A stretch of 64,000 bases of DNA from an uncultured Rhizobiaceae bacterium (GTDB taxonomy: Bacteria; Pseudomonadota; Alphaproteobacteria; Rhizobiales; Aestuariivirgaceae), in the NCBI GenBank assembly GCA_964543235.1, contig CAZIXE010000010.1, forward strand, positions 11,276 to 75,275, in the 5' to 3' direction. A program made the translations under genes and the position numbers. Numbering within the stretch: the stretch's first letter is position 1; every line of letters begins with the position of its first letter. Positions 4,714 to 57,590 of the stretch are shown in pieces. The notes under the pieces were generated by a model, which was given only the letters and a program-made list of their open reading frames with translations, did no database searches and was not told where the DNA came from.

Positions 4714-4722
4714 GTCATGCGG

Positions 4723-6180: not shown

Positions 6181-6181
6181 C

Positions 6182-7435: not shown

Positions 7436-7460
7436 GGCGCTGCTTCCTTCGCGGCCTCCG

Positions 7461-8636: not shown

Positions 8637-8723
8637 GGAACACCTCTTCGCGCTTTTCGATAGGAGCGGTGTCAGCTATAAGTCAAATCGCAAATAACTA
8701 TAACATATATAAGTTGGACTGAT

Positions 8724-9578
8724 ATGACCTACGCTCAGCTCAGAGCCTTTCACGCGGTCGCGCGTGCGGGAGGTTTTTCCAGGGCCGCGGCCCGCCTGTC
8801 CCTGACCCAGCCGGCCATCTCCGACCATGTCCGCAAGCTGGAGGAGCGCTATGGTGTCCAGCTCGTTGTTCGCCGGCCGCGCGGCGTGACCTTGACCGAG
8901 TTGGGACGCCAGCTCCTGGCCATCATCGAGCGTCAGTTCGAAGCCGAGGCGGAAGCCCGCGACCTGCTCTCCCGCGCCCAGACCCTCCAGGAGGGACAGC
9001 TCACCATTGGCGCGGATGCTGCCGTCCACGTCCTGCCCCAGATCGCGCGGTTCAAGGCCCGCCATCCCGGCATCGCCGTGCGACTGGTCGCCGGTAACTC
9101 GGCGGACCTCCTCGCGAGGCTTGCTGATTTCAGTATCGACTTTGCCGTGACCGCCGACCGGCCATCGGCCGAAGCCGTTGCCCGCCGCAAGCTGCGCGAG
9201 GACCCTCTCGTCGCCGTGGTCTCGGCGAAGTCGTTCCCCGGACGCAAAGCGAGCCTCACCTTTGCGGAATTGGCGGCCATGCCGCATGTTCTGCGGGAAC
9301 AAGGATCGGCAACGCGCCGTATCCTGATGGCCGAACTTCAAAGCCGTGGCCTGCACCTGGCGCAAGTGACCGAGGTCGAGGGCCGCGAAGCGGCCCGTGA
9401 AGCCGCAGCCCAGGGCCTTGGCGTCGCGGTCATGTCGCGAGCCGAACTGGCCGACGACGGCCGGCTCAAGGCATTGCGCTTTTCCGACTGGCCGGTTGCC
9501 ATGGAGGAGTGGCTCGCCTGGCTCTCGTCACGCGCCGGCCTTCACGTGATTCGCGCCTTTCTCGACACGGCGCGCTGA
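8724..9578 (+). CDS. LysR-family transcriptional regulator
   Basis: 284 aa. The N-terminal HTH (MTYAQLRAFHAVARAGGFSRAAARLSLTQPAISDHVRKLE) is followed by a LysR substrate-binding domain. It is divergent from phnW. Confidence 0.9.
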   Translation: MTYAQLRAFHAVARAGGFSRAAARLSLTQPAISDHVRKLEERYGVQLVVRRPRGVTLTELGRQLLAIIERQFEAEAEARDLLSRAQTLQEGQLTIGADAAVHVLPQIARFKARHPGIAVRLVAGNSADLLARLADFSIDFAVTADRPSAEAVARRKLREDPLVAVVSAKSFPGRKASLTFAELAAMPHVLREQGSATRRILMAELQSRGLHLAQVTEVEGREAAREAAAQGLGVAVMSRAELADDGRLKALRFSDWPVAMEEWLAWLSSRAGLHVIRAFLDTAR

Positions 9579-9614
9579 TCCGTGGCATGCTGAACCAGGC
9601 TGTGAGGAGTGACG

Positions 9615-10460
9615 ATGGCCCCAACGCTCAAAATTGCCTGCATCCAGAACCTGGCCACCCCCGATGTCGGCCGCGATCTCGAGACACTGGCGCGCCTCAT
9701 CGAAAGCGCCGCCGGTCTGGGCGCCACGCTGATCGCCACGCCGGAGTATTGCGCGGGCCTGGAAACCCGTGACGGCAGGCTCTATCCCTTTGCCGCGGCC
9801 GAGGCGGAACACCCTGTCATCCCCGCGATGTCGGATCTCGCGCGCCGCCACCGCATCTGGATCCTTGTGGGATCGATCGGGGTGCGGGCCGCGGATGGCC
9901 GCATCAGCAACCGCTCTCTCCTGTTCGCATCGGACGGCCGCATCGTCGCCCGCTACGACAAGCTGCATCTGTTCGATGTCGATCTGGGTGCCGGCAGGAT
10001 CTACCGCGAGTCGGCAACCATCGCACCGGGCAATGACGCGGTTCTGGCGCCGGGACCCGCCGGTCCGATCGGCCTGTCGATCTGCTACGATCTCCGCTTC
10101 GCCGCCCTCTATCGCGCCTATGCAAAGGCCGGCGCGGTGCTCCTCGCGGTTCCCGCCGCCTTCACCCGGACGACCGGCGAGGCGCACTGGCACGTGCTCA
10201 ACCGGGCGCGGGCGATCGAGACCGGTTCCTATGTCATTTCGCCGTGCCAGTACGGCACGCTCGCCGGCGGCGCCCAGTGCTACGGCCATTCGCTCATCGT
10301 CGATCCCTGGGGGCAGGTGCTGGCCGACGGCGGCGATTCGGAGGGCGTGATCCTGGCCGATATCGATATCGGCGAAGTGGCGAAGGCAAGGCACCGGATA
10401 CCGGCGCTGACCCACGACCGCCCCATCGCGCTTCACCACCCGGCCGCCGCGGCGGAATGA
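9615..10460 (+). CDS. carbon-nitrogen hydrolase (nitrilase superfamily, Nit/omega-amidase-like)
   Basis: ATG at 9615 preceded by GAGGAG (9604-9609). The catalytic E-K-C pattern is present (TPEY..., YDKLHLFD, ICYDLRF). Confidence 0.85.
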   Translation: MAPTLKIACIQNLATPDVGRDLETLARLIESAAGLGATLIATPEYCAGLETRDGRLYPFAAAEAEHPVIPAMSDLARRHRIWILVGSIGVRAADGRISNRSLLFASDGRIVARYDKLHLFDVDLGAGRIYRESATIAPGNDAVLAPGPAGPIGLSICYDLRFAALYRAYAKAGAVLLAVPAAFTRTTGEAHWHVLNRARAIETGSYVISPCQYGTLAGGAQCYGHSLIVDPWGQVLADGGDSEGVILADIDIGEVAKARHRIPALTHDRPIALHHPAAAAE

Positions 10461-11165
10461 TCACAGGCACCAGTTGATCGGCGCCCGGCCGTTGGCGGCG
10501 AGATAGGCATTGGCGGCGGCGAAGGGGTGGGCGTCGATGAACGGGTGTTCGCCGCCCTTGCGCATGTTGAGTGGCGAGGGATGCGTGCAACGGACAATGC
10601 CGTGGCAAGTGGTGTCGATGAGCGGGGCATAGCGCTGGGCGGGCGTACCCCACAGCAGGAACACGACATTCTCGCGCCGCACCGATACGGCGCGCACTGC
10701 CGCCCGGCTGGCCGCTTGCCAGCCTAGCGCCTTGTGGCTGTGGGGGGCACCGGCGCGGACGGTGAGGATCGTGTTGAGAAGCAGCACGCCGCGCTTTGCC
10801 CAGGCCGACAAGTCGCCGTGGCCGGGCATGGGACAGCCGAAATCCGCCGCCAGCGAGCGATAGATCGTTCTGAGTGACGGCGGAATCGGCCGTCCGCGTG
10901 GCACCGAGAAGGCGAGGCCATGCGCATTGCCCGGCGTCGGATAGGGATCCTGCCCGAGTATGACCGCCTTGACCTCCTGCAGCGGCGTCAGCTGCAGGGC
11001 GGCGCAGACCTGCTCTGGTGCCGGATAGATCGCCTGCCCGGCCTGAACCTCGTGATCCGCCCGCTGCGCTGCGGCCCTTGCATGGTGAAGGAAGTCGGCA
11101 CATGCACCCCAGCCGCAGGCGGCGTTGGCCTGCAGCGCTTCGATGGCCTCCACATAGGTGGTCAT
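10461..11165 (-). CDS. ung: uracil-DNA glycosylase, family 1
   Basis: 234 aa with the GQDPYP and HPSPL motifs of Ung. Confidence 0.9.
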   Translation of the reverse strand: MTTYVEAIEALQANAACGWGACADFLHHARAAAQRADHEVQAGQAIYPAPEQVCAALQLTPLQEVKAVILGQDPYPTPGNAHGLAFSVPRGRPIPPSLRTIYRSLAADFGCPMPGHGDLSAWAKRGVLLLNTILTVRAGAPHSHKALGWQAASRAAVRAVSVRRENVVFLLWGTPAQRYAPLIDTTCHGIVRCTHPSPLNMRKGGEHPFIDAHPFAAANAYLAANGRAPINWCL

Positions 11166-11265
11166 GGCGGCAGGACGGCGGCGGGATTGCTGCGATGAAC
11201 CCGCTCACAAGGCGGGATGTGCTTGACCCGGCCGGCCCGCAGATGGCGCCGATGCTGCAGCGTGT

Positions 11266-12135
11266 TCACGCCGCCAGGCTTCCCCGCCCGCCTGCAATGT
11301 AGGAGTCGAGCCACGGCGTGCGATAGCCGTCAGCCTGCCACGTGATGGGGAAGTAGCTCTCGTCCATCTCGACCGAGCCGACTTTCTTGTAGCGCGAATA
11401 GATGTAGCTGATCTTGGTCGGATGGAATTTCGCCGCCGAGGAGATGCAATGGGCGATGACCGCACGCCTCGGCTTGTCGCCCCGGTTGTCGCGCGATCCG
11501 TGCCAGGTCCGGCCATGGTGGATGACGCAGGACCCGGCCGGGATTTCGATGGGCACGAATTCGGGAGACTTGACCCCCGCCGTCTCGGCCGCCGGGTAGA
11601 GGTCGTGTAGGGGATCGTCGGGGGCATGGAACTGCTTGATCGGTGGCGCCACCGGCCATTTGTGTGACCCGCGCACATATTCAATGGTGCCCTGGTGAGC
11701 CTTGGTGTCGTCGAGGGGAATCCAGCAGGTGTTCATCTCGCCCGGCACGATCCAGTCGTTGTAGGAATCATCCTGGTGAAAACCGAGTGGCTTGGTGCCC
11801 GGCGGCTTCCAGATGACATTGTCCTGCCCGAGGCGCGCCCCCGGCCAGCGTCTCAGCCTGGCACAGGCCTCGCCCACATCGGCACGCAGCACGATGCCGG
11901 CGATCGTCGTGTCCGACTTCCAGCCGTTGCAGATCTGCCGGGTCAGGTCTTCCCGGTCGCGCCCCATCCGCCAGTTCCATTCATCGGGATAGAGCCCGGT
12001 TTCGAACTTGCCGGAGAACAGGGGCTCGAACCGGGCCCGTGCGGCCTCGACTTGCACTTGATCGAGCACGCCATGGACGATGACAAACCCGTCGCGATCG
12101 AAGCTGTCGAATTGGTCCTGCGTCAGTGTAATCAT
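11266..12135 (-). CDS. Fe(II)/2-oxoglutarate dioxygenase, phytanoyl-CoA dioxygenase (PhyH) family
   Basis: Start taken at ATG 12135 (MITLTQDQFDSFDRDGFV...). An HxD is present in GFHQDD and a distal His in HHGRTWHGS. The longer ORF upstream overlaps the EamA gene and is rejected. Confidence 0.8.
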   Translation of the reverse strand: MITLTQDQFDSFDRDGFVIVHGVLDQVQVEAARARFEPLFSGKFETGLYPDEWNWRMGRDREDLTRQICNGWKSDTTIAGIVLRADVGEACARLRRWPGARLGQDNVIWKPPGTKPLGFHQDDSYNDWIVPGEMNTCWIPLDDTKAHQGTIEYVRGSHKWPVAPPIKQFHAPDDPLHDLYPAAETAGVKSPEFVPIEIPAGSCVIHHGRTWHGSRDNRGDKPRRAVIAHCISSAAKFHPTKISYIYSRYKKVGSVEMDESYFPITWQADGYRTPWLDSYIAGGRGSLAA

Positions 12136-12158
12136 TCTGTCGTCCCTCTTGTCGAATG

Positions 12159-13022
12159 TTATTGCGGCCATGCCAGCATCGCAATGCCGATGGAGATCAT
12201 GGCGATCCCGGCCCATTGCGCCATTGACACGCTTTCCTTGAGCAGGAGCGCGGCCAGCATGACAGACATGGCGCCGTAACCTGAGATCCCCACGGCGGCG
12301 AATTCCTTGCCCGGCAGATGGCCGGAGGCATTGACCGAGATCAGCCCGCCCGAATCGAGTGCACCCATCGCCGCAATGCCCCACCACGCGCGCGGCCGCA
12401 CCGGTTGCAGGCGCGGTTCACCGGCCGCCACCATCGCGAACAGCGCAATCGCCGTCGCCCGCGATAGCCACGCGGCCTCGATCTCGCCGATCATGACCGC
12501 CGCCTTCTGCCCGAGGATGACCGCTGCGGCATAGCCCGCGCTGCAGACCGCACAGGCGATGAGCAGCGCGGCGAGCTTGCCGGGCAGGACGGCATTGAAG
12601 CCGCCGTCGGGCGTGCTCGATCGTGAGACGAGTGCTGCGCCGGAAAGAGCGACGATCGTCGCGATCCATTGCAGGGGGGTGGGTGCCAGCCCGTGCACGA
12701 GCCCCCACATCACCACGAACACCGGATAGATCGACGTCAGCGGCCCGACCACCGAGATCGGCCCCAGGCTGAAGGCTTTGTAGATGCCGCCGGCCCCGGC
12801 TGCATAGGCAACGCCCAGTCCCAGGGCCCACACCAGGCCCTCCGCGCTGGCTGCAAACAGCGTGCCCCGCACCGCCACGATGGCCGTCATCATGAGTCCC
12901 GACAGCACCATGATCCACAGGCCCATGCGCAGCGGCCCGAGCCGGGGTGCATAGACTCGCGCCAGGAGGTCGTGGACGGCCAAGCACAGCGCTGCCGCAA
13001 CACCGAAGAGGACGGCGGTCAT
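12159..13022 (-). CDS. EamA/DMT-family transporter
   Basis: 287 aa with about 10 hydrophobic spans in two EamA-like halves. Its ATG abuts the GntR stop (TGAATG at 13025-13020). Confidence 0.8.
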   Translation of the reverse strand: MTAVLFGVAAALCLAVHDLLARVYAPRLGPLRMGLWIMVLSGLMMTAIVAVRGTLFAASAEGLVWALGLGVAYAAGAGGIYKAFSLGPISVVGPLTSIYPVFVVMWGLVHGLAPTPLQWIATIVALSGAALVSRSSTPDGGFNAVLPGKLAALLIACAVCSAGYAAAVILGQKAAVMIGEIEAAWLSRATAIALFAMVAAGEPRLQPVRPRAWWGIAAMGALDSGGLISVNASGHLPGKEFAAVGISGYGAMSVMLAALLLKESVSMAQWAGIAMISIGIAMLAWPQ

Positions 13023-13745
13023 TCAGATGCTGTCGGCACCGACGAGATCCTGTCGCGCGGTTTCCAGATGGCGGGAAATCTGTTCTGCCGCGCCCGGCGC
13101 GTCGCGCTGCCGCAGCGCATCGACGATTGCCCGATGCTGCTGGTTGTAGAGGTCCATCTTGGCCGTGGTGAGAATGATCTGTTTCATCTGCTCCCACTGG
13201 GCGTGGCTGCGCACCGTGTTGATTTGCTGGTACAGCCGCAGGATCAGCGGGTTGTGCGAACACCGCGCCAGCTGCAGATGGAACTCGGAATCGAGCTTGG
13301 TGAACAGATCCTGGTCGCCGCGCACCGATTCCAGTTGGTTGAGAATGCCTTCGATGGCATCGAGATCGCGGCTCGAGGCGTGCACGGCGGCAAGCCGTGC
13401 CATATAGGGCTCGATCGCGAATCGCGTTTCGATGAGCTGCAGCGGCGAGATGAGGTCGGTGACATCCGACATCGCATCCTGGACCGGGCCGCTGTAGTTG
13501 ACGAAGGTCCCCGACCCCACCCGGCGCACGACCAGGCCCTTCTGCTCGAGCTGGTCGAGCGCCTTGCGAATGGTCGAACGCGCCGTGCCGAAGGCGACGG
13601 CGAGCTGCCGCTCCGGCGGCAGCTGGTCCCCGTCGGCATAGATTCCGGTCTCGATGGCCCGGCGCAACCGGGCCGTGATGGAACTGGCGCCCCGGTTGGC
13701 GACGAGTTGCGGGTCCTCCCCGTCGTCATTCCCGTTATGGTTCAT
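13023..13745 (-). CDS. GntR-family regulator, FadR subfamily (winged HTH + FCD domain)
   Basis: A GntR HTH (LPPERQLAVAFGTARSTIRKALDQLEQKGLV) is followed by an all-helical FCD-like C-terminus. I prefer the start at ATG 13745 (MNHNGND..., GAGAG SD-like sequence upstream). The alternative ATG 13778 lacks an SD. The 736-aa ORF in the track is an artefactual extension. Confidence 0.85.
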   Translation of the reverse strand: MNHNGNDDGEDPQLVANRGASSITARLRRAIETGIYADGDQLPPERQLAVAFGTARSTIRKALDQLEQKGLVVRRVGSGTFVNYSGPVQDAMSDVTDLISPLQLIETRFAIEPYMARLAAVHASSRDLDAIEGILNQLESVRGDQDLFTKLDSEFHLQLARCSHNPLILRLYQQINTVRSHAQWEQMKQIILTTAKMDLYNQQHRAIVDALRQRDAPGAAEQISRHLETARQDLVGADSI

Positions 13746-13764
13746 CCAGCTCTCACTGGTCTCG

Positions 13765-13802
13765 ATTGGTCCGCTCATTGGTTTAAATTGGTTAGATTTG
13801 GT
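13765..13802. promoter_or_regulatory. four phased ATTGGT(T) boxes (candidate FadR-type GntR operator)
   Basis: ATTGGT occurs at 13765-70, 13777-82 and 13787-92, and ATTTGGT at 13796-13802. TTGGT start spacing is 12/10/10 bp. The boxes lie in the divergent control region. Confidence 0.5.
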
Positions 13803-13919
13803 TTGCAATGGGCCCTGACTCGTGTAGAGTATGGTCTCAGAATTGGGCCCCGCGTCAAGTCGAACCTCGGATGAGCCGCGCTGCCGGGGCCCGGTCAAAC
13901 CAGGGAGTAGAAGGCGAAC

Positions 13920-15266
13920 ATGGCTGTTCCCTCCGGCGTGAAATACGCCATCATTGGTGCCGGCATCCATGGTCTTTCGACCGCCTATCATTTGGCATTG
14001 CGTCTCAGGGAAACGGGGAGAGGCTCCGGCAAGGACATTCTGGTCGTCGACAAGACGGCGATCGCCGCCGGCGCCTCGGGAATTGCCTGCGGCGTGGTCC
14101 GCAACAACTATTATCAGCCCGCCATGCGCGAACTGATGGCCCAGTGCGTCGAGGTCTGGGAGAGCGATCCCAAGGCCTATTCCTATCACGGCGTCGGCTA
14201 CATGCAGATCAGCCCGGAAGTCATGCACGAGCAGGTCGGCTCGATCTACGAGCAGCAGCAGAAGATCGGCTACGAGTCGGTCTTTGTCGAGGGGGCGAAG
14301 GAGTCCCAGAAATACATGGAGGGCCTGTTCGACGACTGGCAGGCCAAGGGCATCACCTCCGTTCTCCACGAGAAGAAGGGCGGCTACGCCAACAACACCG
14401 CCTCGATCTACGGTCTCGCCTCCAAGGCTGAGTCCGAAGGTGTGCGCATCATGACGGGCGTCGAAGTCAGGGGCTTCGAGTTCGGCTCGAACTCGGCCGC
14501 CGTCACCGGCATCGTCACCAGCAAGGGCACAATCAAGTGCGACTATGTCGTGGTCGGAGTGGGACCCTGGGTGAACCAGATCTGGAACATGCTGGAACTG
14601 CCGCGCGCCATCTCGATCAAGGGCCGCGACGGCAAGATGCACGACAATGTGCGCATGTGGAAGTACTGGTGCCTGGAAGAGGGGACGCTTGGCGTCGATC
14701 CCAACATGCACAAGACCAATGACGGCCGGATGCCACCGGTGATCCACGTCGATACCGATGCGCCGCTTTATTCGGATGTCGACGGCCGCCTGCTGACCGA
14801 CAGGCTCTGGGGCCTCTATTACAAGCCCGACTTCAACTTCGGCGGCGTCCAGGGCGGCTCTTCGCCTTACAAGGTGGAGGTCGACCCCGACGACGTGGCG
14901 GTCGACCCCTACGGCCCCGAATCGCCCGACTTCATCGTCGGCGACCAGTTCATCGAGACCTGGTGTTCCATGCTCGCCCACTGCCAGAAACGCTTCGAAG
15001 GCAAGATCGGCCTCTACAAGAGCCATGAGAGATCCGGCGGCCTCGGCTGCTTCACGCCCGATAATTTTCCGGTCTTTGACGTGTTCCGCGACAACGTCTT
15101 CGTCATCGCGGACTCGAACCACGGCTACAAGATGATCGGTGTCGGCAAGCTCGTGGCGCAGGAAATCTGCGGTGACAAATCCCGGCTCTTGGAGCCCTTC
15201 CGCTTCTCGCGCTACGCTGAAGGCAGGCTCCATCCGGTTTCGAACAGTCCGTTCCCATGGAGCTGA
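13920..15266 (+). CDS. FAD-dependent oxidoreductase (DAO family, sarcosine-oxidase beta-subunit-like)
   Basis: 448 aa. It has the N-terminal dinucleotide fold VKYAIIGAGIHGLSTAYHLA and overall SoxB/DadA-like organisation. Confidence 0.85.
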   Translation: MAVPSGVKYAIIGAGIHGLSTAYHLALRLRETGRGSGKDILVVDKTAIAAGASGIACGVVRNNYYQPAMRELMAQCVEVWESDPKAYSYHGVGYMQISPEVMHEQVGSIYEQQQKIGYESVFVEGAKESQKYMEGLFDDWQAKGITSVLHEKKGGYANNTASIYGLASKAESEGVRIMTGVEVRGFEFGSNSAAVTGIVTSKGTIKCDYVVVGVGPWVNQIWNMLELPRAISIKGRDGKMHDNVRMWKYWCLEEGTLGVDPNMHKTNDGRMPPVIHVDTDAPLYSDVDGRLLTDRLWGLYYKPDFNFGGVQGGSSPYKVEVDPDDVAVDPYGPESPDFIVGDQFIETWCSMLAHCQKRFEGKIGLYKSHERSGGLGCFTPDNFPVFDVFRDNVFVIADSNHGYKMIGVGKLVAQEICGDKSRLLEPFRFSRYAEGRLHPVSNSPFPWS

Positions 15267-15298
15267 TGCAAGGATCGGACGGGAGGAAAGAGGAAGTT

Positions 15299-16774
15299 AT
15301 GGCAACTGACTACGAGAAATTCATCAAGGCCGATGGGCGCGACGAGCTCATCAAGCAGGTCCGCAAGAAGATCGACGCCCTCGGCATCGACTACCTCTAT
15401 CTCCAGTTCGTCTCCGTCACCGGCCGCATCATGGGCAAGGGCATTCCGGCCGATCACTGGGAGAACATCGCGAACGGCGGATTTCAGCTCGTCTACGGGG
15501 CCACCGTCAATCTGTTCATGAATCGCCGCGGCGAATATCTGGGGTATGGACCGGAGGCGGCGGAACTGGTCGGCGTTCCGGAACCGGAAACCTTCATGCA
15601 GTTGCCCTGGGACAAGCGCGTGGCGCGCATGTTCTGCACGCTGTTCCGCAATCGCGAGGAGAAGGAGAATCCCGGAGCCTATCTGACGTCCGATTGCCGC
15701 GGCAACCTCAGGCGCATCCACGAGCAGTTCGAGAAGGACCATGGCATGCACATGCGCCATGGCACCGAGCCGGAAATGATGTGGTTGAAGAAGGACGACA
15801 ACGGCAATCCCAACGGCGGCTATTCCAGGCCCTACTGCTATCACATCGACCAGTTCGAGAGCCTGCGCCCGGTCTACATGCGGGTGATCGAATATGGCCG
15901 CAAGATGGGTCTCGACATGATCCAGGGCGACCATGAAGATGCCCCTGGCCAGCTCGAATTGAACTTCAATTATGACGACGCGCTGCGCACCGCCGACCGC
16001 CTCACCACCTACCGGCAGATCTGCGCCCAGGTGGCCCGCGAGTTCAACATCATCGCCTGCTTCATGTGCAAGCCGTTCATGGGCGTCTCGGCCAACGGCT
16101 GCCACCACAATGTCTCGCTGTGGAAGGGCGGCAAGGACGAGCTCAAGACGCTGGGCAACGATCCCAAGAACCTGCCCGGTTTCGAGCACAACTTCATGTA
16201 CCGTCGCGGCGGCGAGAACACCTTCCTGCCCGACACCGACAACATGCAGATGCCGGGCAAGACCGGCCTCTATGTCATTGGCGGCATCGTCAAGCACCTG
16301 GCGGCGTTGACGGCCATCGGCTGTTCGACCGTGAACTCCTACCGCAGGCTCTGGGACACCGGCTTCTGGGCGCCGGTCTTTGCTGATTGGGGCTTTCAGA
16401 ACCGCACCACCGGCCTGCGCATCTCGGCCCCCGGGCGCTTCGAATACCGCGCCGTCGACTCGATGGTGAATCCGTACCTGATGGCTGGCGCCATCCTGAA
16501 GGCCGCCGACGATGGCATCCGCAACAGGATCGATCCGGGCCAGCCGGAAGAGCGCAACATCTATGCCGCCATGGAAGCGGGCAAGCAGGTGAAGCGGCTG
16601 CCGATGACCCTTGGTGACGCTCTCGAGGCCCTGAAGAAGGACGATGTCATCAGGTCGGCGATGCCGGGCGAAATGCACCGGCTTTACGACGAATACAAGC
16701 GCGACGAATGGGAGCGGTTCCTCCATACGTCGACAGAATGGGATCTCAATACCTATCTGAACTGCTTGCCATAG
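15299..16774 (+). CDS. type-III glutamine-synthetase-like gamma-glutamyl-amine ligase (GlnT / GmaS-like)
   Basis: ATG at 15299 follows GGGAGGAAAGAGGAAG. The 491-aa product has a GS beta-grasp and catalytic domain (HGTEPEMMW, HEDAPGQLELNF, NGCHHNVSLW, SYRRL). Confidence 0.85.
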   Translation: MATDYEKFIKADGRDELIKQVRKKIDALGIDYLYLQFVSVTGRIMGKGIPADHWENIANGGFQLVYGATVNLFMNRRGEYLGYGPEAAELVGVPEPETFMQLPWDKRVARMFCTLFRNREEKENPGAYLTSDCRGNLRRIHEQFEKDHGMHMRHGTEPEMMWLKKDDNGNPNGGYSRPYCYHIDQFESLRPVYMRVIEYGRKMGLDMIQGDHEDAPGQLELNFNYDDALRTADRLTTYRQICAQVAREFNIIACFMCKPFMGVSANGCHHNVSLWKGGKDELKTLGNDPKNLPGFEHNFMYRRGGENTFLPDTDNMQMPGKTGLYVIGGIVKHLAALTAIGCSTVNSYRRLWDTGFWAPVFADWGFQNRTTGLRISAPGRFEYRAVDSMVNPYLMAGAILKAADDGIRNRIDPGQPEERNIYAAMEAGKQVKRLPMTLGDALEALKKDDVIRSAMPGEMHRLYDEYKRDEWERFLHTSTEWDLNTYLNCLP

Positions 16775-16781
16775 AGATTTT

Positions 16782-16894
16782 CCCTCCCCCTGTGTGGGGG
16801 CGGGTGGCGCGAAGCGCCGGGTCGGGAATGTCACAGGCTCAATACAGCCCTAACCCCGCCGCTGCGCAGCGGACCTCCCCCATGGAGGGGGAGG
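16782..16894. repeat. GC-rich multi-hairpin intergenic element
   Basis: Four inverted repeats were read directly: CCCTCCCCC/GGGGGCGGG (16782-16804), GGCGC/GCGCC (16806-16818), the palindrome CCGCTGCGCAGCGG (16859-16872), and CCTCCCCC/GGGGGAGG (16874-16894). Confidence 0.5.
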
Positions 16895-16913
16895 GGAAAG
16901 AAGGAGAAACACC

Positions 16914-17849
16914 ATGTGTGGAATTGCAGGACTGATCCACCGCGACGGCACCGGCAACATCGGCCTCGAAATGACTCAGATGCTGCAGTCGCTGAAGCAT
17001 CGCGGGCCCGACTCGACCGGATACGCGATCTACGGCACGCCGGGCCGCAATGAATTCGTCATGCGCTTCAAGGTCGCCGAGCAGGAGGACATGGCCAGGG
17101 GCTTCGACATTCATGACGAAGTCAAGCGCCGCCGTGCCAGAGTGGAAGAGCGTCTGGCGGCCCTTGGCGTTCAGGTGATTGACCGCGAGGACGCCACCGA
17201 ATACGCCTACCGCTACCGCATCCACTTCGAAGGCGACATGAAGAAGCTCGCCGACTACGTCGAGGATGTCGAGGGAACGGAAATCCTGTCCATCGGCAAT
17301 GCCCTGGAACTGGTGAAGGATCTGGGCGATGCCGCGCGCGTCGCCGACCAGTACAACCTGCGCAAGTTCCGGGGAACCCACGGCATCGGCCACACCCGCA
17401 TGGCAACCGAATCGGATGTCGATATCCGCTCGGCGCATCCCTACTGGGCCTATCCCTACAACGACATTGCCGTGGTCCATAACGGTCAGATCACCAACTA
17501 CTGGCAGATGCGCCGCGAATACGAACGCCGCGGCCACCGTTTCATGTCGAACTGCGATTCGGAGCTGCTGGCGGTCTACACCGCCTACAATCTTGAGCAT
17601 GGTGCGAGCCTCGAGGACTCGCTCAAGCAGTCGATCCAGGACATCGACGGCGTGTTCACCTATCTCGTTTCGACCAGGGACCAGCTCGGCATGGCCAAGG
17701 ACACCATGGCCGCCAAGCCGATGGTTCTCTACGAGAGCGACAATCTGGTGGCCCTGGCCTCGGAGGAGGTGGCCATCCGCGCCGTTATTCACCACGAGAT
17801 CGACACTTGGGACCCTTACGACGAGGAGGTTCGCGTATGGCGGGCGTAA
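16914..17849 (+). CDS. class-II (Ntn) glutamine amidotransferase (GlxB / MgsA-like)
   Basis: 311 aa starting MCGIAGL (the catalytic Cys follows the initiator Met). This resembles glutamate-synthase domain 1. Confidence 0.85.
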   Translation: MCGIAGLIHRDGTGNIGLEMTQMLQSLKHRGPDSTGYAIYGTPGRNEFVMRFKVAEQEDMARGFDIHDEVKRRRARVEERLAALGVQVIDREDATEYAYRYRIHFEGDMKKLADYVEDVEGTEILSIGNALELVKDLGDAARVADQYNLRKFRGTHGIGHTRMATESDVDIRSAHPYWAYPYNDIAVVHNGQITNYWQMRREYERRGHRFMSNCDSELLAVYTAYNLEHGASLEDSLKQSIQDIDGVFTYLVSTRDQLGMAKDTMAAKPMVLYESDNLVALASEEVAIRAVIHHEIDTWDPYDEEVRVWRA

Positions 17850-18694
17850 CCACGATGAAGACGGACCATCTCTCCCATGAGATGGGCATGCACACCGAGG
17901 GACTCCTCGGCCGCACCCAGCAGCGCTTCTTCGACATCACCGAGGAGAATGTCGGCTATGGCTATCCCGACGCGCCCGATGTCGACTTCAACAGGCGCGC
18001 CGAGATCGACTGCGAGTCTCTCGACACCCGGCAGATCAACCTGCAGCTCCGCGACCTGATCCGCCGCGGCTACGGCACCATCGTGCTAAAGAACCCAGGT
18101 GCGAAGCACTCGATCGCCGTCGGCATTCTCAACCGGCTCAACCTCTACATCGAAGGCTCCTGCGGCTACTTCGCCTGCGGCCTGACTGACGGCCCCAATA
18201 TCAGGATCAAGGGCCGGGTCGGCTGGGCCTGCGGCGAAAACATGCTGGCCGGCACCATTGTCGTCGAGAAGAACGCCGGCTCCCAGTTCGGTGCCGCACT
18301 GCGCGGCGGCGATCTCGTCTGCAAGGGCTCGGTCGGCTCGCGCACCGGCATCGACCAGAAGGGCGGCAACATCATCGTGGGCGGCGACACCGGCTCCTTC
18401 TCCGGCTTCATGATGCAGAGAGGCCGCATGGTGATCCTCGGCAATGCCGGCAAGAATCTGGGAGACTCGATGTATGACGGCACCATCTACCTGGGCGGCG
18501 AGGCGCGTTCGCTCGGCGTCGATGCCGTGCCCGGCGAAATGACCGAACTCGACCGCGAATGGCTGACGCGAAAACTCAAGATGTACGATCTCTATCCCGC
18601 CAGGGGAATCGACCACATCCGGAAGATCGTCGCCGGCAAGCAGCTGTGGAACTACGACAATCTCGAACCGAGTGAAAAGAAGCTCGTGCTTTGA
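17837..18694 (+). CDS. GXGXG-motif glutamate-synthase domain-3-like protein (GlxC / MgsB-like)
   Basis: ATG at 17837 follows GAGGAGG and overlaps the upstream stop by 13 nt. Repeated beta-helix GxxGxxxG motifs are present (GSCGYFACG, GRVGWACGE, GSVGSRTG, GDTGSFSG). Confidence 0.8.
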   Translation: MAGVTTMKTDHLSHEMGMHTEGLLGRTQQRFFDITEENVGYGYPDAPDVDFNRRAEIDCESLDTRQINLQLRDLIRRGYGTIVLKNPGAKHSIAVGILNRLNLYIEGSCGYFACGLTDGPNIRIKGRVGWACGENMLAGTIVVEKNAGSQFGAALRGGDLVCKGSVGSRTGIDQKGGNIIVGGDTGSFSGFMMQRGRMVILGNAGKNLGDSMYDGTIYLGGEARSLGVDAVPGEMTELDREWLTRKLKMYDLYPARGIDHIRKIVAGKQLWNYDNLEPSEKKLVL

Positions 18695-18702
18695 GGAGGA
18701 AC

Positions 18703-20247
18703 ATGATGGCCAGGAAAAAGAAACTGAAGGCAGTAGCGGCCCGCAAGGCAGCCGCTGTGAAACGCTCGGCGCCCGTCAAGGCCGCAAAGAAGAAGGCCGT
18801 GGCCCGGCCGGGGCGCAAGGCGGTTGCGGCGCCCCGCAAATCCGCCATGGCCCGCACCAGGACCGGCATGGTGGCGCTGGCGGCCAGGGCGCCGGCGGAA
18901 ACTAGGAAATACATCCTCGGCCGCTCCCAGATTTTCACGCCGGAAGTCATCAACGACATCCACATCAAGTCGGAGCTGGGCCGCTACCGCATGCGCGGCT
19001 TCTCGCTGTTCAAGAAGATCCCGCACTGGGATGACCTGACCTTCCTGCCGGGAACCCTGACCCGCTTCGTGATCGAGGGCTACCGCGAGAAGTGCGAGAC
19101 GAAGACGGTGATCGGCCCCCGCGCCAAACGTCCCATGGTGCTCGACATACCCGTCTATGTCACCGGCATGTCCTTCGGCGCGCTCTCCTATGAGGCGAAG
19201 ATCGCGCTCGCCCGCGGCGCCACCATGGCGGGATCGGCCACCTGTTCCGGCGAGGGCGGCATGATCCCCGACGAGCGCCGCTATTCGCAGAAATGGCTCT
19301 ACCAGTGCATCCAGTCGCGCTACGGCTTCAACCCGCACCATCTGCGTCTCGCCGATGCCTGCGAATTCTTCATCGGCCAGGGCTGCAAGGTGGGCCTGGG
19401 CGGCCATCTCATGGGCCAGAAGGTGACCGACCAGGTGGCCGAGATGCGCTCGCTCCCCGCCGGCATCGACCAGCGCTCGCCCGCCCGCCATCCCGACTGG
19501 CTAGGCCCCGACGATCTGGCGCTGAAGATCCAGGAGATCCGCGAAGCCACCAACTGGGAAATCCCGATCCAGCTCAAGCTCGGCGCCGCGCGCGTCTATG
19601 ATGACGTCCGCATGGCGGTGAAGTGCGATCCCGATTCGATCTATATTGACGGCATGGAAGGCGGCACCGGCGCCGGCCCCCACATTGCCACCGAAGACAC
19701 CGGCGTTCCCGGCATCGCCGCGATCCGCGAGGCGAGGCGCGCCATCGACGAACTGGGCAAGAAGGGCGAGATTTCGCTGATCTATGCCGGCGGCATCAGG
19801 AACGGCGGCGACGTCGCCAAGGCGCTGGCGCTTGGCGCCGATGCCATCGCCATCGGCCACTCGGTGATGATGGCGCTCAACTGCAACAAGCACATCGAGG
19901 GCGTCACCGACTATCCCAACGAGATCGGCGTCGAGGCGGGCTTCTGCTACCACTGCCACACCGGCCGCTGTCCGGTCGGCGTCGCCACCCAGGACCCGGT
20001 GCTGCGGAGCCGTCTCGACCCCGACAAGGCGGCCGAGCGCGTCTACAACTTCCTGCACACGCTCACCATGGAGGCCCAGCTTCTGGCGAGAGCCTGCGGC
20101 AAGACCAACATCCATTCGCTGGAGCCCGAGGACCTGGCCGCGCTGACCATGGAAGCTTCCGCCCTGTGCAAGATTCCGCTGGCCGGCACCAACTATGTGG
20201 TCGGCCACGAAGCGCTGGGAACCAGCGGCAACTATCACCGGTATTGA
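18703..20247 (+). CDS. FMN-binding glutamate-synthase family protein (GlxD / MgsC-like) with Lys/Ala-rich N-terminal extension
   Basis: ATG at 18703 or 18706 lies directly after a strong GAGGAGGA. The core resembles GltB domain 2 (SFGALS, GEGG, GGTGA, GGIRNG). The first ~65 residues are AKP-rich. Confidence 0.85.
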   Translation: MMARKKKLKAVAARKAAAVKRSAPVKAAKKKAVARPGRKAVAAPRKSAMARTRTGMVALAARAPAETRKYILGRSQIFTPEVINDIHIKSELGRYRMRGFSLFKKIPHWDDLTFLPGTLTRFVIEGYREKCETKTVIGPRAKRPMVLDIPVYVTGMSFGALSYEAKIALARGATMAGSATCSGEGGMIPDERRYSQKWLYQCIQSRYGFNPHHLRLADACEFFIGQGCKVGLGGHLMGQKVTDQVAEMRSLPAGIDQRSPARHPDWLGPDDLALKIQEIREATNWEIPIQLKLGAARVYDDVRMAVKCDPDSIYIDGMEGGTGAGPHIATEDTGVPGIAAIREARRAIDELGKKGEISLIYAGGIRNGGDVAKALALGADAIAIGHSVMMALNCNKHIEGVTDYPNEIGVEAGFCYHCHTGRCPVGVATQDPVLRSRLDPDKAAERVYNFLHTLTMEAQLLARACGKTNIHSLEPEDLAALTMEASALCKIPLAGTNYVVGHEALGTSGNYHRY

Positions 20248-20260
20248 GGAGGCAAGCGCC

Positions 20261-20674
20261 ATGGCAGGCACCAGCTACAAGGGCTCCGAGATCAGGGACG
20301 TCAACCAGTTCCTGAAGGACAAGGACGGCCTCTCCTCGAGCCGCGAGAAGGAGATCGGCCAGCACATCGGCTATCGCTACGATGTCAACCTGATCCCCGA
20401 CTACAAGCGGCTCACCCCCTTCCTCAAGGGCTACATGGAATACATGGGCTGGGACGACCTCAACTGGCTCGAGGATGTCCACATGGGCTACGAGGAGGGC
20501 GAACCGGCCATCTTCGACCGCAACTGCAACGGCTGGGTCCGCATTCCGAAGAAGGTGAAGCTCCCGGACAACCAGCAGGACCGTGACATGATGGCGAGGG
20601 AGCTCTTGATCAAGTTCCAGATGTCGCCGAACCACCCGATGGTGCAGCTCAACAAGGCCTACCGCAAGTTCTGA
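20261..20674 (+). CDS. hypothetical protein (137 aa), last gene of the Glx-like operon
   Basis: ATG at 20261 lies 13 nt after the GlxD-like stop and is preceded by GAGGAGG (20246-20252). The composition is balanced and I recognise no family. Confidence 0.6.
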   Translation: MAGTSYKGSEIRDVNQFLKDKDGLSSSREKEIGQHIGYRYDVNLIPDYKRLTPFLKGYMEYMGWDDLNWLEDVHMGYEEGEPAIFDRNCNGWVRIPKKVKLPDNQQDRDMMARELLIKFQMSPNHPMVQLNKAYRKF

Positions 20675-20693
20675 GCGGACAGATCGGCTTCTG

Positions 20694-21044
20694 TTACAGT
20701 GCGATCACCGTCCGCATCTCGTCATAGTCTGCCCTCAGTCCCGCCTCGTCACGCTCGATCAGCCCGGCTTGCGTCAAGGCTTCAACGTCCTCGAAAACCC
20801 GCTTGTAATCGCGCTCGAGGCTGCGCGCCAGTGCCGCCACGCTGGCGGCGGGATGCCGGTGCAAATGCCGCAGCAATTCGAATCGCTTGGGTGTCATGAC
20901 CTTTGCAAGCGTCTCCCAGGAGACGAAGGTTAGATGGTCTTCATTGACATTTTCGCCGCGCTCGGCCCGCCGCCAGGCGTCCACCACGCGCTTGGCGACC
21001 GCGTCGAAACCGCCGCCGACATGCACCTTAAGCACCTTGCTCAT
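20694..21044 (-). CDS. HTH DNA-binding antitoxin candidate (TumA-like / HVO_A0114-type)
   Basis: 116 aa with a winged-helix segment (RFELLRHLHRHPAASVAALARSLERDYKRVFEDVEALTQAGLIER). Its ATG overlaps the upstream stop (ATGA). Confidence 0.65.
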   Translation of the reverse strand: MSKVLKVHVGGGFDAVAKRVVDAWRRAERGENVNEDHLTFVSWETLAKVMTPKRFELLRHLHRHPAASVAALARSLERDYKRVFEDVEALTQAGLIERDEAGLRADYDEMRTVIAL

Positions 21045-21331
21045 ATCTTTTCTCCGCGAAGCGACTCGACATCTCGCCTGAAATCGGCAAGCAGGTCCTC
21101 GATCGAAGTGAACCGGTAACTCTCCTCCCGCTGCCCGTAGTGGCGGTGATCGCCCTTGCCCCGTTCGTTGTCGTAACCCACCAACCGTTCTCCGGGGCGG
21201 CCGTAGAACAGGGAATACTTGAGCCGGTGTGCCGACGGCGGGACTTTTTCCGGCACCCGCCAGATCCTGATCGTAAGAACTGCTCCATCGTCGAAAATCA
21301 TCCGTTCCTGAACGACAAGCTCAGCCTTCAT
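21041..21331 (-). CDS. TumE-like (DUF6516-type) toxin candidate
   Basis: 96 aa. It carries the YDNERGKGDHRH block that I associate with TumE-family toxins. It is the first gene of a 2-gene cassette in a locally lower-GC stretch. Confidence 0.65.
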   Translation of the reverse strand: MKAELVVQERMIFDDGAVLTIRIWRVPEKVPPSAHRLKYSLFYGRPGERLVGYDNERGKGDHRHYGQREESYRFTSIEDLLADFRRDVESLRGEKI

Positions 21332-21376
21332 ATGGCGGTGTATGCCATAGACCAGCTTATGGCGTCAAGCGCCATA
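21331..21376. promoter_or_regulatory. twin palindromes TATGGC-N7-GCCATA and TATGGCG-N5-CGCCATA
   Basis: Read directly at 21331-21349 and 21358-21376. The first overlaps the tumE-like start codon, so these are candidate autoregulatory operators. Confidence 0.45.
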
Positions 21377-21490
21377 TTCCGCCACCGGCTCGATCTGCAC
21401 CGTTTTCCGGTACGCTGTGAATGCCGGCACATCCACGTCGTTCGGAACATCGGGATCGGACAACCGAGTCTGTCGCAGGATCGAAAGCGC

Positions 21491-21519
21491 TTGACGGTGC
21501 CTTCTCCCGATTGTATGTT
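21491..21519 (+). promoter_or_regulatory. sigma70-like promoter TTGACG-N17-TATGTT
   Basis: The -35 lies at 21491-96 and the -10 at 21514-19. This is about 33 nt upstream of ATG 21552, with GAAGGG as the SD. Confidence 0.4.
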
Positions 21520-21551
21520 CATGTTATGTTCCATAGTTGTGAAGGGTCTTC

Positions 21552-22229
21552 ATGGATTGGGAACGAGCCATCCAGCGCAATCGCGATGCACTTCTGAACA
21601 TTGTCGCAACCGTCTTCGCCCTGCTGGGCCTGGAAGGCGGCGGCAGCGTTGCGCGCATTTCGCGTAGGCTTCACCGCGCCGCACTCCGCCTGCTGGTGCC
21701 CGCCGAAGCCGCCGCACGCCGCCTGATCGTCATTGCCGCGCGCGACATCGTCGTCGAACCGCGGCCCCTGCGCCCGCTGCCTCCCGGCGCCACCATCCCG
21801 AAAGGCGAGGGCGCGCGCTTCGCCTTCCGGCTCTGTGATCCGCCAAGGCATGGCTCCGGCTACCGCCCGTCTGCCGCTCCGCGCGCCATTCCCCGCATCC
21901 ATGTCTTCACCCCCGACCCGCGGGTCGCCGCCCTGTGGCCGCGGCCACAGCCGGCAGCGGCGCCACCGCCGGACCCGGACATCGACGCCGGGCGCCTGTG
22001 CCGGCGGCTTGCCGCCCTCAAGGCGGCCCTCGACGATCTGCCGCGCCAGGCGCGGCGTCTGGCCCGCTGGCGGGCGCGGCGCGAACATGCCCGGAATTGG
22101 GCCTCCGCCTCGCCGCTCCGCGCAGGCCCGCCGCCGGGCCACCGCAGGCAGCCGGTTTACGACGTCGATGACGTGCTTGGCGAATGCCACGGGCTTGCCC
22201 TCGATGTGCTGCATCCGGACACTTCCTGA
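21552..22229 (+). CDS. hypothetical Pro/Arg/Ala-rich protein (225 aa)
   Basis: The ORF has strongly G/C-biased third codon positions in this frame. It has its own promoter-like element and SD. The N-terminus is helical and the centre is proline-rich. I recognise no family. Confidence 0.5.
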   Translation: MDWERAIQRNRDALLNIVATVFALLGLEGGGSVARISRRLHRAALRLLVPAEAAARRLIVIAARDIVVEPRPLRPLPPGATIPKGEGARFAFRLCDPPRHGSGYRPSAAPRAIPRIHVFTPDPRVAALWPRPQPAAAPPPDPDIDAGRLCRRLAALKAALDDLPRQARRLARWRARREHARNWASASPLRAGPPPGHRRQPVYDVDDVLGECHGLALDVLHPDTS

Positions 22230-22250
22230 AACGCCGCGCCCGCCCCGATG

Positions 22251-22823
22251 TCACTCTGGCGGCGCAACGCCGCTGCTCTGCGCTGTCTTCCAGTCCGGCG
22301 TGAAGCCGAGCACGTCCGCCTCCTTCGGGATGTTCGGATTGAACAGCCGTGCCTGCCACAGGCTGGCCTCGCCTGCGGCATCTCCCGCCTTGAGCCGCTT
22401 CACCCGGCAGAACATGCGGAAGCTCTGGGAATACTGCGCGAAGTCGAGCAGCACGTCTCTTGCCCTGATGAGCCGGGCGGCAGTCTCGGAACCTGGCCCG
22501 AACACCGCCGTCATCTGGTCGGCGAACCGCTCCGGGAGCTGGAAATAGTCTGCCGCCATGTACTTGACGCCCGCTTCGCGCGCCTGCCGGGGATCGAAAT
22601 GCTTTTGCATTTGGAACCGGAAATAGGCCGTGCTCTCCTCCGGTTCGGCGGGAATGATGAGGATGTTCATGGCCGGGAGGATAACCTCGCCCTTGCGGCT
22701 GACCACGCGGGGCCGCATCGCCGCCAGCGGCTGGCCGCCATACTCGCGCGCCGATATTTGCCGGATCCGGCACTGCCAGCCGAGAAACTGCAGCCGGAAC
22801 ATCTGGTTGCTGATCCGCTTCAT
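22251..22823 (-). CDS. hypothetical protein (190 aa), divergent from tmm
   Basis: ATG at 22823. The composition is balanced and globular-looking, with no recognisable motif. It shares a 105-bp control region with tmm. Confidence 0.6.
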   Translation of the reverse strand: MKRISNQMFRLQFLGWQCRIRQISAREYGGQPLAAMRPRVVSRKGEVILPAMNILIIPAEPEESTAYFRFQMQKHFDPRQAREAGVKYMAADYFQLPERFADQMTAVFGPGSETAARLIRARDVLLDFAQYSQSFRMFCRVKRLKAGDAAGEASLWQARLFNPNIPKEADVLGFTPDWKTAQSSGVAPPE

Positions 22824-22855
22824 CGCGCGGCGCTTTGTCCTTTACATAAAGGTAT

Positions 22856-22889
22856 GGAATTGGGCTAATATTGGTCCAAATTGGATTCC
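22856..22889. promoter_or_regulatory. phased ATTGG boxes / palindrome TTGGTCCAA / GGAAT..ATTCC inverted repeat
   Basis: Boxes: AATTGG 22858-63, ATTGG 22870-74, AATTGG 22879-84. Spacing is about 10-11 bp. GAATTGGGC lies at 22857-65. Confidence 0.4.
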
Positions 22890-22928
22890 GCAAGCAAGTG
22901 ATTCCAACCCAACGGAGGAAACTTTCGC

Positions 22929-24269: not shown

Positions 24270-24338
24270 GGCACTTTACCGGGCAAAGAAAAGGTGACAG
24301 GCTCGCCCGCCTGTCGCCTTATTCAATGGGAGCCCAGC

Positions 24339-57586: not shown

Positions 57587-57590
57587 GCGC

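Follow-up and report, generated by a model that had tools for sequence, protein, structure and literature searches.

Which amine is handled, and by what chemistry, at a locus that joins a glutamine synthetase (GS)-fold ligase to three separate glutamate synthase (GltS)-like proteins, as the N-methylglutamate (NMG) pathway does, and yet is not the canonical form of that pathway? The question is raised by positions 11266-20674 of a 64-kb stretch of alphaproteobacterial DNA (contig CAZIXE010000010.1; GC content ~65%), the whole of which is referred to here as the window. An earlier note, made from the sequence of the window, had proposed an uncharacterized gamma-glutamylation pathway for a different, possibly hydroxylated or N-alkylated, amine. 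The first half of that proposal stands: the locus carries a widespread, distinct and uncharacterized pathway, a new form of gamma-glutamylation joined to a split GltS-like synthase. As to the amine, the surrounding trimethylamine (TMA)/trimethylamine N-oxide (TMAO) island points to a methylated rather than a hydroxylated compound. Overall, the locus is probably a conserved paralogue of GmaS-MgsABC in the TMA/TMAO island of Alphaproteobacteria and a few Gammaproteobacteria, where it would act as a reductive gamma-glutamylation/NMG-type system for a methylated amine; the predicted paralogy follows domain content and gene order, which are those of GmaS, MgsA, MgsB and MgsC. Gene calls and profile matches confirmed all nine genes that had been placed in the locus, with their domains, and the genes that proved constant are the following.

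13023-13745, minus strand: FadR-subfamily GntR regulator (Pfam GntR and FCD), divergent from the module
15299-16774, plus strand: 491-amino-acid (aa) GS-fold gamma-glutamyl-amine ligase, putative GmaS paralogue (Gln-synt_C, E 7e-80)
16914-17849, plus strand: Ntn (class II) amidotransferase, MgsA-like, beginning MCGI with the catalytic Cys at position 2 (GATase_6/7)
17855-18694, plus strand: GXGXG beta-helix protein, MgsB-like (PF01493)
18703-20247, plus strand: FMN glutamate-synthase-type subunit, MgsC-like (PF01645, E 2e-89)
20261-20674, plus strand: ORF137, 137 aa, directly after the FMN gene in all loci (no Pfam or NCBIfam match)

The comparison of loci was anchored on ORF137, which was searched in a collection with one genome per species and found to be encoded by at least 586 species. 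The proteins of the window and a reference panel were then mapped onto the best 80 ORF137 loci, each from a different species, and presence was counted over the 49 of these that have full flanks of ±9-10 kb. The genes for the ligase, the Ntn-amidotransferase, the GXGXG protein, the FMN subunit and ORF137 were syntenic in all 49 loci, an arrangement far beyond chance; the divergent GntR gene was present in 48, and a family of 190-200 aa that we call u199 in 41. By contrast, the DAO-family flavoprotein gene was found in 23 loci and missing from 26, the PhyH gene was found in 11 and the EamA gene in 8. These counts define a core module of GntR and the five genes from the ligase to ORF137, usually with u199, and identify DAO, PhyH and EamA as accessory, lineage-specific genes; the co-occurrence of rightward and leftward genes, which the note had put forward as a check, thus holds for the five rightward genes and the regulator, and not for these three. 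Further neighbours were a CN-hydrolase (30 of 49), a class-I amidotransferase/C26 hydrolase (18 of 49) and an aldehyde dehydrogenase (Aldedh; 5 of 49).

Median identity to the window copy over the 80 loci was 86% for the FMN subunit, 80% for ORF137, 75% for the ligase, 70% for the amidotransferase and 69% for the GXGXG protein. Among the matches listed, the nearest relatives of the window are Aestuariivirga and other metagenome-assembled genomes (MAGs) of Hyphomicrobiales, and four JGI metagenome contigs carry identical gene calls. No ORF137 homologue was found among 72,556 plasmids; the sole DNA match in that collection was the canonical mgsC of Paracoccus aminovorans, whose island served as reference. 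Rfam gave no RNA family in positions 9000-25000 of the window. We did not find a description of the module in the literature, and annotation pipelines label its proteins 'glutamine synthetase family protein', 'FAD-binding oxidoreductase', 'methylglutamate dehydrogenase subunit A' and 'hypothetical protein'.

The ligase and the split synthase

Against TIGR03105, the equivalog model of GmaS/type III GS, the ligase scored 306.9 bits, below the cut-off of 469.6, whereas the canonical GlnT of P. aminovorans scored 633.1 bits; it also fell below the cut-offs of GlnA (TIGR00653; 251.6 bits against 429) and PuuA (NF045547; 227.3 bits against 650). The ligase matched P. aminovorans GlnT by BLASTP at E 1e-60 and is 29% identical to the canonical GmaS of that reference. 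Over the loci, identities to canonical GmaS fall into two groups: canonical copies reach 63-64%, and module ligases 27-33%. Together with identities of 32% for the amidotransferase to canonical MgsA of P. aminovorans, 36% for the GXGXG protein to MgsB and 52% for the FMN subunit to MgsC, this bears out the earlier claim that the set is not canonical GmaS/MgsABC. The unusual length of the ligase, which had also been remarked upon, is due to an insertion of ~51 aa after the HxN(V)SLW strand.

In RhGmaS, Asp177 and Glu186 are catalytic and Tyr147, Gln175, Glu179 and Asn188 belong to the pocket, with Trp300 and without the Asp50' and flap Glu of GS (PMC7948447). When the ligase was aligned to RhGmaS (PDB 7CQL) and GS structures, the flap Glu of GS was replaced by Trp (GFWAP), like Trp300 of RhGmaS, and Asp50' by Tyr, while Tyr147, Gln175, Asp177, Glu179, Glu186 and Asn188 of RhGmaS were retained as CY...QGDHEDAPGQLELN (motif QxDHEDAxGQxExN), so that every alignable residue of the methylamine pocket is kept. 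Of 66 ligase-family ORFs, 57 keep the motif, eight gave no match to the regular expression and one is canonical GmaS. Retention of the GmaS residues and replacement of the ammonium residues of GS argue, as judged from these alignments, that the ligase is a GmaS-type gamma-glutamyl-alkylamine ligase and not a glutamine synthetase.

The FMN subunit, for which the best GltS match in the PDB scored 113 bits, carries the motif NCN...CYHCHTGRCPVG, that is, NCN followed after 25 aa by CYHCH(T/S)GRCPVG. Three of its cysteines fall opposite Cys1102, Cys1108 and Cys1113, which bind the 3Fe-4S cluster in Azospirillum brasilense GltS (1ea0/2vdc/7mfm), and a fourth forms a CxxC. This Fe-S motif is conserved in 70 of 71 FMN-subunit orthologues, and cysteines are missing at the Fe-S positions of the two canonical MgsC proteins examined (P. 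aminovorans and locus L081). Since the subunit keeps the Fe-S ligands of GltS, a reductive step like that of glutamate synthase (GOGAT) is probable; the synthase would exchange electrons with a partner and run a net reductive reaction, in contrast to the redox-neutral exchange of NMG synthase. No GltD-like gene was found at the window locus or among its conserved neighbours, no other conserved electron-donor gene, such as one for ferredoxin, is linked, and the window locus gave no match to Glu_syn_central. The GXGXG protein has an extra N-terminal segment of ~50 aa, with a JGI start at 17837. At positions 18691-18900 of the window, the FMN subunit has a predicted N-terminal tail of ~60-70 aa that is rich in Lys and Ala (ARKKKLKAVAARKAAAVKRSAPVKAAKKKAV...), a feature absent from the 454-aa Rhodobacterales orthologues and from canonical MgsC. 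A third and yet more divergent set of amidotransferase, GXGXG and FMN genes, 37-41% identical to the module, was seen in a Thalassospiraceae MAG (L079, 470-3270, minus strand), where it stands back-to-back with the GntR gene of the module.

ORF137 had been described as an orphan and as an unknown small protein recruited under one regulator. The comparison shows instead an invariant core gene, 76-93% identical to the window copy in the mapped loci and second in conservation only to the FMN subunit. The tight coupling that had been described is confirmed, with 13 nt between the FMN stop and the ORF137 start (GGAGG lies 8 nt before the ATG); about half of the loci have 9-20 nt between the two genes. 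A protein search returned more than 8,000 clusters at 90% identity, the best 120 of which are 78-93% identical, and in a library clustered at 50% identity the protein forms essentially one full-length cluster, the rest being fragments or frameshift artefacts; longer matches that looked like fusions (P0228, P0236 and others) were likewise frameshift artefacts and not domain fusions. ORF137 has no conserved cysteine, the cluster look-ups returned no informative names, and its AlphaFold2 (AF2) model, of moderate confidence (mean predicted local distance difference test, pLDDT, 73), found no Foldseek match in the PDB below E 1.8. Most likely, ORF137 serves the synthase as a fourth subunit or as an adaptor.

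The methylated-amine island

Methylated amines, that is, TMA, TMAO, dimethylamine (DMA) and monomethylamine (MMA), are an important reservoir of dissolved organic nitrogen in the sea, and climate-active aerosols form from them. Genes for their use surround the module, and the functional neighbourhood extends past positions 11266-20674 to the CN-hydrolase, u199, tmm and TMAO permease genes. The downstream members, together with the flavoprotein gene discussed below, are as follows.

13920-15266, plus strand: 448-aa DAO-family FAD flavoprotein, distant from SoxB/MgdA (PF01266)
22251-22823, minus strand: u199, 190 aa, conserved protein with unknown role, encoded between the module and tmm (matches neither Pfam nor NCBIfam)
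22929-24269, plus strand: trimethylamine monooxygenase (Tmm), 2.2 kb downstream (NCBIfam NF058570 equivalog, 856 bits, cut-off 675)
29230-31023, plus strand: TMAO permease of the APC family, 8.5 kb downstream (NCBIfam NF053774, 813.7 bits, cut-off 690)

Tmm of the window is 68% identical to that of P. aminovorans, and the permease is 69% identical to the permease of its TMA island. A known methylated-amine gene lies within 10 kb of the module in 30 of the 49 loci (tdm in 20, tmm in 17, tmoX in 17 and canonical mgdA in 8). In Rhodobacterales, the order is mgdDCBA (leftward), TmaR-like AraC regulator and C26 hydrolase (both rightward), GntR (leftward) and then, all rightward, DAO (in some), ligase, amidotransferase, GXGXG protein, FMN subunit, ORF137, CN-hydrolase, u199, tmm, tmoX, tmoV, tmoW and tdm. 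A contig resembling Taklimakanibacter has a gene for a glutathione-dependent formaldehyde-activating enzyme (GFA) after ORF137. The u199 proteins share the motifs WQCRxRQ, FSDxxTAxF, FNP and PDW.

Canonical genes occur beside the module in three loci: L081 (MgsC 81% and GmaS 64% identical to the reference), L084 (GmaS 63%) and L060 (MgsA 55%). Both sets are thus kept in one island, and the module is no mere replacement of canonical gmaS/mgs. The reference island on the P. aminovorans plasmid contains mgsABC-glnT, tmm, tdm, the permease, dmmDABC and mgdABCD, and dmmDABC is also part of the TMA cluster of Ruegeria pomeroyi; none of dmmA, dmmB and dmmC was found in the 80 module neighbourhoods (±10 kb), including islands that code for all other steps. 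Apparent DmmD matches beside tdm, at 25-36% identity, proved to be the GCV_T domain of Tdm itself. The interval from tmoR to tdm in R. pomeroyi (SPO1554-1561) was rejected as a copy of the module, SPO1557 being fhs-1; the GmaS of this organism is canonical, at 61% identity to the 430-aa RhGmaS.

The flavoprotein of the window had been taken as the single member present of an otherwise missing NMG dehydrogenase. No mgdABCD genes were found within the 64-kb window, which agrees with this view; the implied role of a stand-in does not hold. In 8 of the 49 loci, the 10 kb around the module include a canonical mgdA whose product shares 70-77% identity with MgdA of P. aminovorans, and in 7 of these DAO is present as well, so DAO is no replacement for MgdABCD. 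DAO and SoxB profiles match only residues 9-226 of the protein, which reached 61.9 bits against the soxB model TIGR01373 (cut-off 529) and had its best PDB match in 1y56_B (E 8e-13). Its search returned more than 8,000 clusters, the best 120 of which are 83-95% identical; the AF2 model, from a shallow alignment, is unusable (pLDDT 44). Some JGI pipelines name it 'methylglutamate dehydrogenase subunit A'.

Other genes of the island were recorded as separate observations. A DJ-1/PfpI protein is encoded directly after tmm (24294-25094, plus strand), and the TmaR-like regulators of relatives fuse DJ-1 to an AraC helix-turn-helix. Between ORF137 and u199/tmm lies a minus-strand pair (20694-21331) encoding an HVO_A0114/MarR-like winged helix-turn-helix protein (116 aa) and TumE (96 aa), which resembles an insertion of toxin-antitoxin type at a place where most relatives have the CN-hydrolase or u199; a 225-aa ORF without Pfam or NCBIfam match (21552-22229, plus strand) separates this pair from u199. 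In four Roseovarius loci (L050, L053, L056 and L066), a second GntR gene and an operon were found downstream of u199, at about 12-20 kb of the locus, with genes for a dihydrodipicolinate synthase-family protein, an aldehyde dehydrogenase, an MttB-family (non-pyrrolysine) methyltransferase, a cytochrome P450 and short-chain dehydrogenases, another context of methylated or quaternary amines. A 765-aa flavoprotein of the OYE/FadH type (Oxidored_FMN and Pyr_redox; 55529-58808, minus strand) was considered as a TMA/DMA dehydrogenase and rejected as FadH/NCR type: it matched NCR/2,4-dienoyl-CoA reductase at E 3e-61 against E 4e-43 for TMA dehydrogenase, and adjoins an MFS transporter gene.

The regulator and the accessory genes

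The remaining features of the locus concern the divergent promoter region, the leftward operon and the CN-hydrolase upstream of it.

9615-10460, plus strand: CN-hydrolase (nitrilase superfamily, Nit1/omega-amidase-like), an accessory gene of the conserved group (JGI gene call, matched by Pfam CN_hydrolase)
11266-12135, minus strand: PhyH-type Fe(II)/2-oxoglutarate dioxygenase (PF05721, E 9e-29)
12159-13022, minus strand: EamA-family transporter (PF00892)
13765-13812, no strand assigned: ~5 direct ATTGG(T) repeats with 10-12 bp spacing in the divergent promoter region (read from the sequence)

In an alignment of 10 orthologous intergenic regions, the ATTGG repeat array was the sole strongly conserved block, and 8-mers of the AATTGGT type were the commonest recurrent words in 65 intergenic regions; we propose the array as a candidate operator. 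A palindromic operator of the FadR type (TTGGT-N-ACCAA) was considered and rejected, as only the direct ATTGG repeats are conserved. Promoter and terminator scans gave no excess over shuffled sequence, and the JGI gene call places an alternative start of GntR at 13778.

In R. pomeroyi, the GntR repressor TmoR adjoins tmm and responds to DMA and TMAO as effectors, and in other strains 'a gene of unknown function' usually stands between its homologues and tmm (PMC13390433). With the module taken out, the gene order of our locus becomes GntR, u199, tmm, which agrees with the positional pattern of TmoR, position being all that was compared. By this positional analogy, the GntR protein is probably the counterpart of TmoR, and u199 that of the intervening gene.

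The stop codon of the GntR gene (TGA) and the start codon of EamA (ATG) are immediately adjacent, as had been noticed. The recruitment of PhyH and EamA, named earlier among the departures from the canonical set, is restricted to a sub-clade of Hyphomicrobiales and one Rhodovibrionaceae locus, in which the genes are arranged differently, and the EamA genes of different loci are only 27-33% identical. The nearest solved structures to PhyH are MysH, SnoK and PHYHD1, at E 2e-11 or weaker. The CN-hydrolase, whose family stands immediately after ORF137 in Rhodobacterales, has the deaminated-glutathione amidase model as its best NCBIfam match (196 bits, below the cut-off of 500). Deaminated-glutathione amidases of the Nit1 type act on 2-oxoglutaramyl amides, and this nearest relationship would fit a role in the clean-up of deaminated gamma-glutamyl amides. 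In four loci (L014, L016, L022 and L023), the CN-hydrolase is directly beside PhyH; in the window, a uracil-DNA glycosylase gene (10461-11165, minus strand) stands between the two. Directly upstream, at positions 3046-9578, lies a 2-aminoethylphosphonate degradation cluster with genes for a Na/Pi cotransporter-PhoU protein, a PhnY-like aldehyde dehydrogenase, a PhnA-like phosphodiesterase-family hydrolase, a PhnW-like class-V aminotransferase and a divergent LysR regulator, and the same cluster adjoins the module in the Taklimakanibacter-like contig L087.

Proposed mechanism, its rivals and known systems

From the domain assignments, the chemistry of the module can be sketched as follows. The ligase would use ATP to attach MMA or DMA (from TMAO by Tdm) to the gamma-carboxyl group of glutamate; the Ntn-amidotransferase would split the gamma-glutamyl amide and, with the GXGXG protein as scaffold, hand the amine to the FMN subunit, which would condense it with 2-oxoglutarate and reduce the product to an N-methylated glutamate, probably with an external electron donor. 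Demethylation of this product by the DAO-like flavoprotein where present, by MgdABCD, or by both, would release formaldehyde. ORF137 would act as fourth subunit or adaptor of the synthase and u199 as a further conserved partner, the Nit1-like amidase and the class-I amidotransferase/C26 hydrolase of relatives may dispose of gamma-glutamyl or 2-oxoglutaramyl amide side products, and the GntR protein would control the divergent promoters through the ATTGG repeat array.

Several observations weigh against this interpretation. The aligned pocket residues are the same as in GmaS, so nothing in the sequence points positively to any substrate but MMA; the reductive step would have to proceed without a conserved linked donor such as GltD or ferredoxin; DAO is absent from about half of the loci (26 of 49); 19 of the 49 loci have no known methylated-amine gene within 10 kb; and GntR is matched to TmoR, and u199 to the unknown gene beside tmoR, only by position.

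As to the substrate, MMA is our tentative first choice, because the GmaS pocket is conserved and mgdABCD is adjacent. DMA is possible, and is favoured by the absence of dmmABC from the 80 neighbourhoods, by the coexistence of DAO and MgdA and, if the orthology holds, by the response of TmoR to DMA; the loci that lack DAO and those without a nearby TMA/TMAO gene, counted above, speak against it. Another amine seems unlikely. A specific form of the DMA proposal, which we regard as rather doubtful, is a Dmm-independent route through N5,N5-dimethylglutamine and N,N-dimethylglutamate to NMG. DMA would be gamma-glutamylated to N5,N5-dimethylglutamine, the Fe-S/FMN subunit with ORF137 as a new subunit would transfer it reductively to 2-oxoglutarate, giving N,N-dimethylglutamate, and the DAO-like flavoprotein would demethylate this to NMG, which MgdABCD would complete. 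Such a route would explain why islands with tmm, tmoXVW, tdm and mgdABCD, even with canonical gmaS, carry the module and never dmmABC, and also why DAO and MgdA occur together.

The alternative that best withstands the data is that the module is an isofunctional, divergent GmaS-MgsABC for MMA, with DAO as a single-subunit NMG oxidase and no new chemistry. It is a possibility that we consider doubtful. The full conservation of the aligned RhGmaS methylamine-pocket residues, a gene order like that of the gmaS-mgsABC operon of R. pomeroyi, the canonical mgdABCD that abuts the module in at least 8 loci and the subunit A label given to DAO by some JGI pipelines speak for this alternative. Against it stand the retention of canonical gmaS/mgs beside the module in three loci, the 7 loci in which DAO and canonical mgdA are both present, the lack of any canonical counterpart to ORF137, u199 and the Fe-S cysteines, and a ligase score well below the GmaS/type III GS equivalog cut-off. 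Gamma-glutamylation of a non-methyl (hydroxylated or longer-chain) amine, along the lines of the Ipu, Puu or aniline systems and with PhyH and EamA as integral parts, is improbable. In the window, PhyH, EamA and GntR do share a single transcription unit, PhyH and EamA accompany the module as a pair in two arrangements (Hyphomicrobiales and L060), and some relatives have Puu-like accessories (DAO, and the C26 hydrolase and Aldedh counted above); however, most loci lack PhyH and EamA, the EamA genes are barely alike, the ligase falls far below the PuuA cut-off, and the neighbourhoods are dominated by tmm, tdm, tmoXVW, mgd and the TMAO permease gene. Finally, a GS/GOGAT pair that re-assimilates ammonia from methylated-amine breakdown, which the GS fold of the ligase and the GltS cysteines of the split synthase might suggest, is very improbable given a ligase with GmaS-type replacements of the ammonium-binding and -deprotonating Asp50' and flap Glu, its low GlnA score (251 bits against 429) and the lack of a GltS central domain or GltD-like subunit.

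Marine bacteria with tmm, tdm and gmaS but no dmmDABC are reported to show a 'DMA bottleneck' (PMC5520151). The module lies in methylated-amine islands, is spread over at least 586 species and counts among its products ORF137 and u199, both strongly conserved and without a known family; we did not find it in the pathway schemes that were examined. If the GmaS of R. pomeroyi as a query matches the module ligase similarly, surveys with a threshold of e-50 (PMC5520151) would score the ligase as gmaS. Should the substrate be DMA, the module would fill a recognized gap and bear on the 'DMA bottleneck' (PMC5520151); should MMA be handled reductively, it would provide a direct, GOGAT-like assimilation of methylamine nitrogen without free ammonia. 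The module is experimentally tractable, as cultured strains of Roseovarius and Taklimakanibacter carry it; carriers include Roseovarius atlanticus, Roseovarius halotolerans and Taklimakanibacter deserti.

Four known systems invite comparison. DmmDABC, which in R. pomeroyi lies just upstream of tmaR-mgdABCD, is comparable in position, as the Rhodobacterales module fills the stretch from the TmaR-like regulator, by mgdABCD, to tmm/tdm; the two are unlike in sequence, and ATP-dependent gamma-glutamylation takes the place of mono-oxygenation with O2 and NADPH, so a functional link between them is put forward as a hypothesis only. PuuABCD, IpuC and IpuF likewise link a GS-like ligase to a DAO-family flavoprotein, and relatives of our locus add a class-I amidotransferase/C26 hydrolase and an aldehyde dehydrogenase, whereas the constant partner of the module is a split GltS-like enzyme, which Puu and Ipu lack, and its context is that of methylated amines. 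With the large subunit of GltS, the module shares an Ntn-amidotransferase with N-terminal Cys, a GXGXG beta-helix and an FMN domain with three Fe-S cysteines; it differs in its division into three polypeptides, in lacking a central domain and a gene for a GltD or ferredoxin partner, and in the fourth cysteine (CxxC), and its FMN subunit is much nearer to MgsC (52%) than to GltS. The closest system is the NMG pathway, known from Methylocella silvestris, Methyloversatilis, R. pomeroyi (SPO1573 onward) and, through RhGmaS (PDB 7CQL), Rhodovulum. As there, a GmaS-type ligase is followed by separate Ntn-amidotransferase, GXGXG and FMN proteins, and the module lies in TMA/TMAO islands, beside mgdABCD in relatives. 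Unlike GmaS/MgsABC, the module has identities of 29-52%, a ligase below the TIGR03105 cut-off with a 51-aa insertion, GltS-type Fe-S cysteines, ORF137, u199 and extra Nit1-like amidase and DAO genes, and one island can hold both it and the canonical set.

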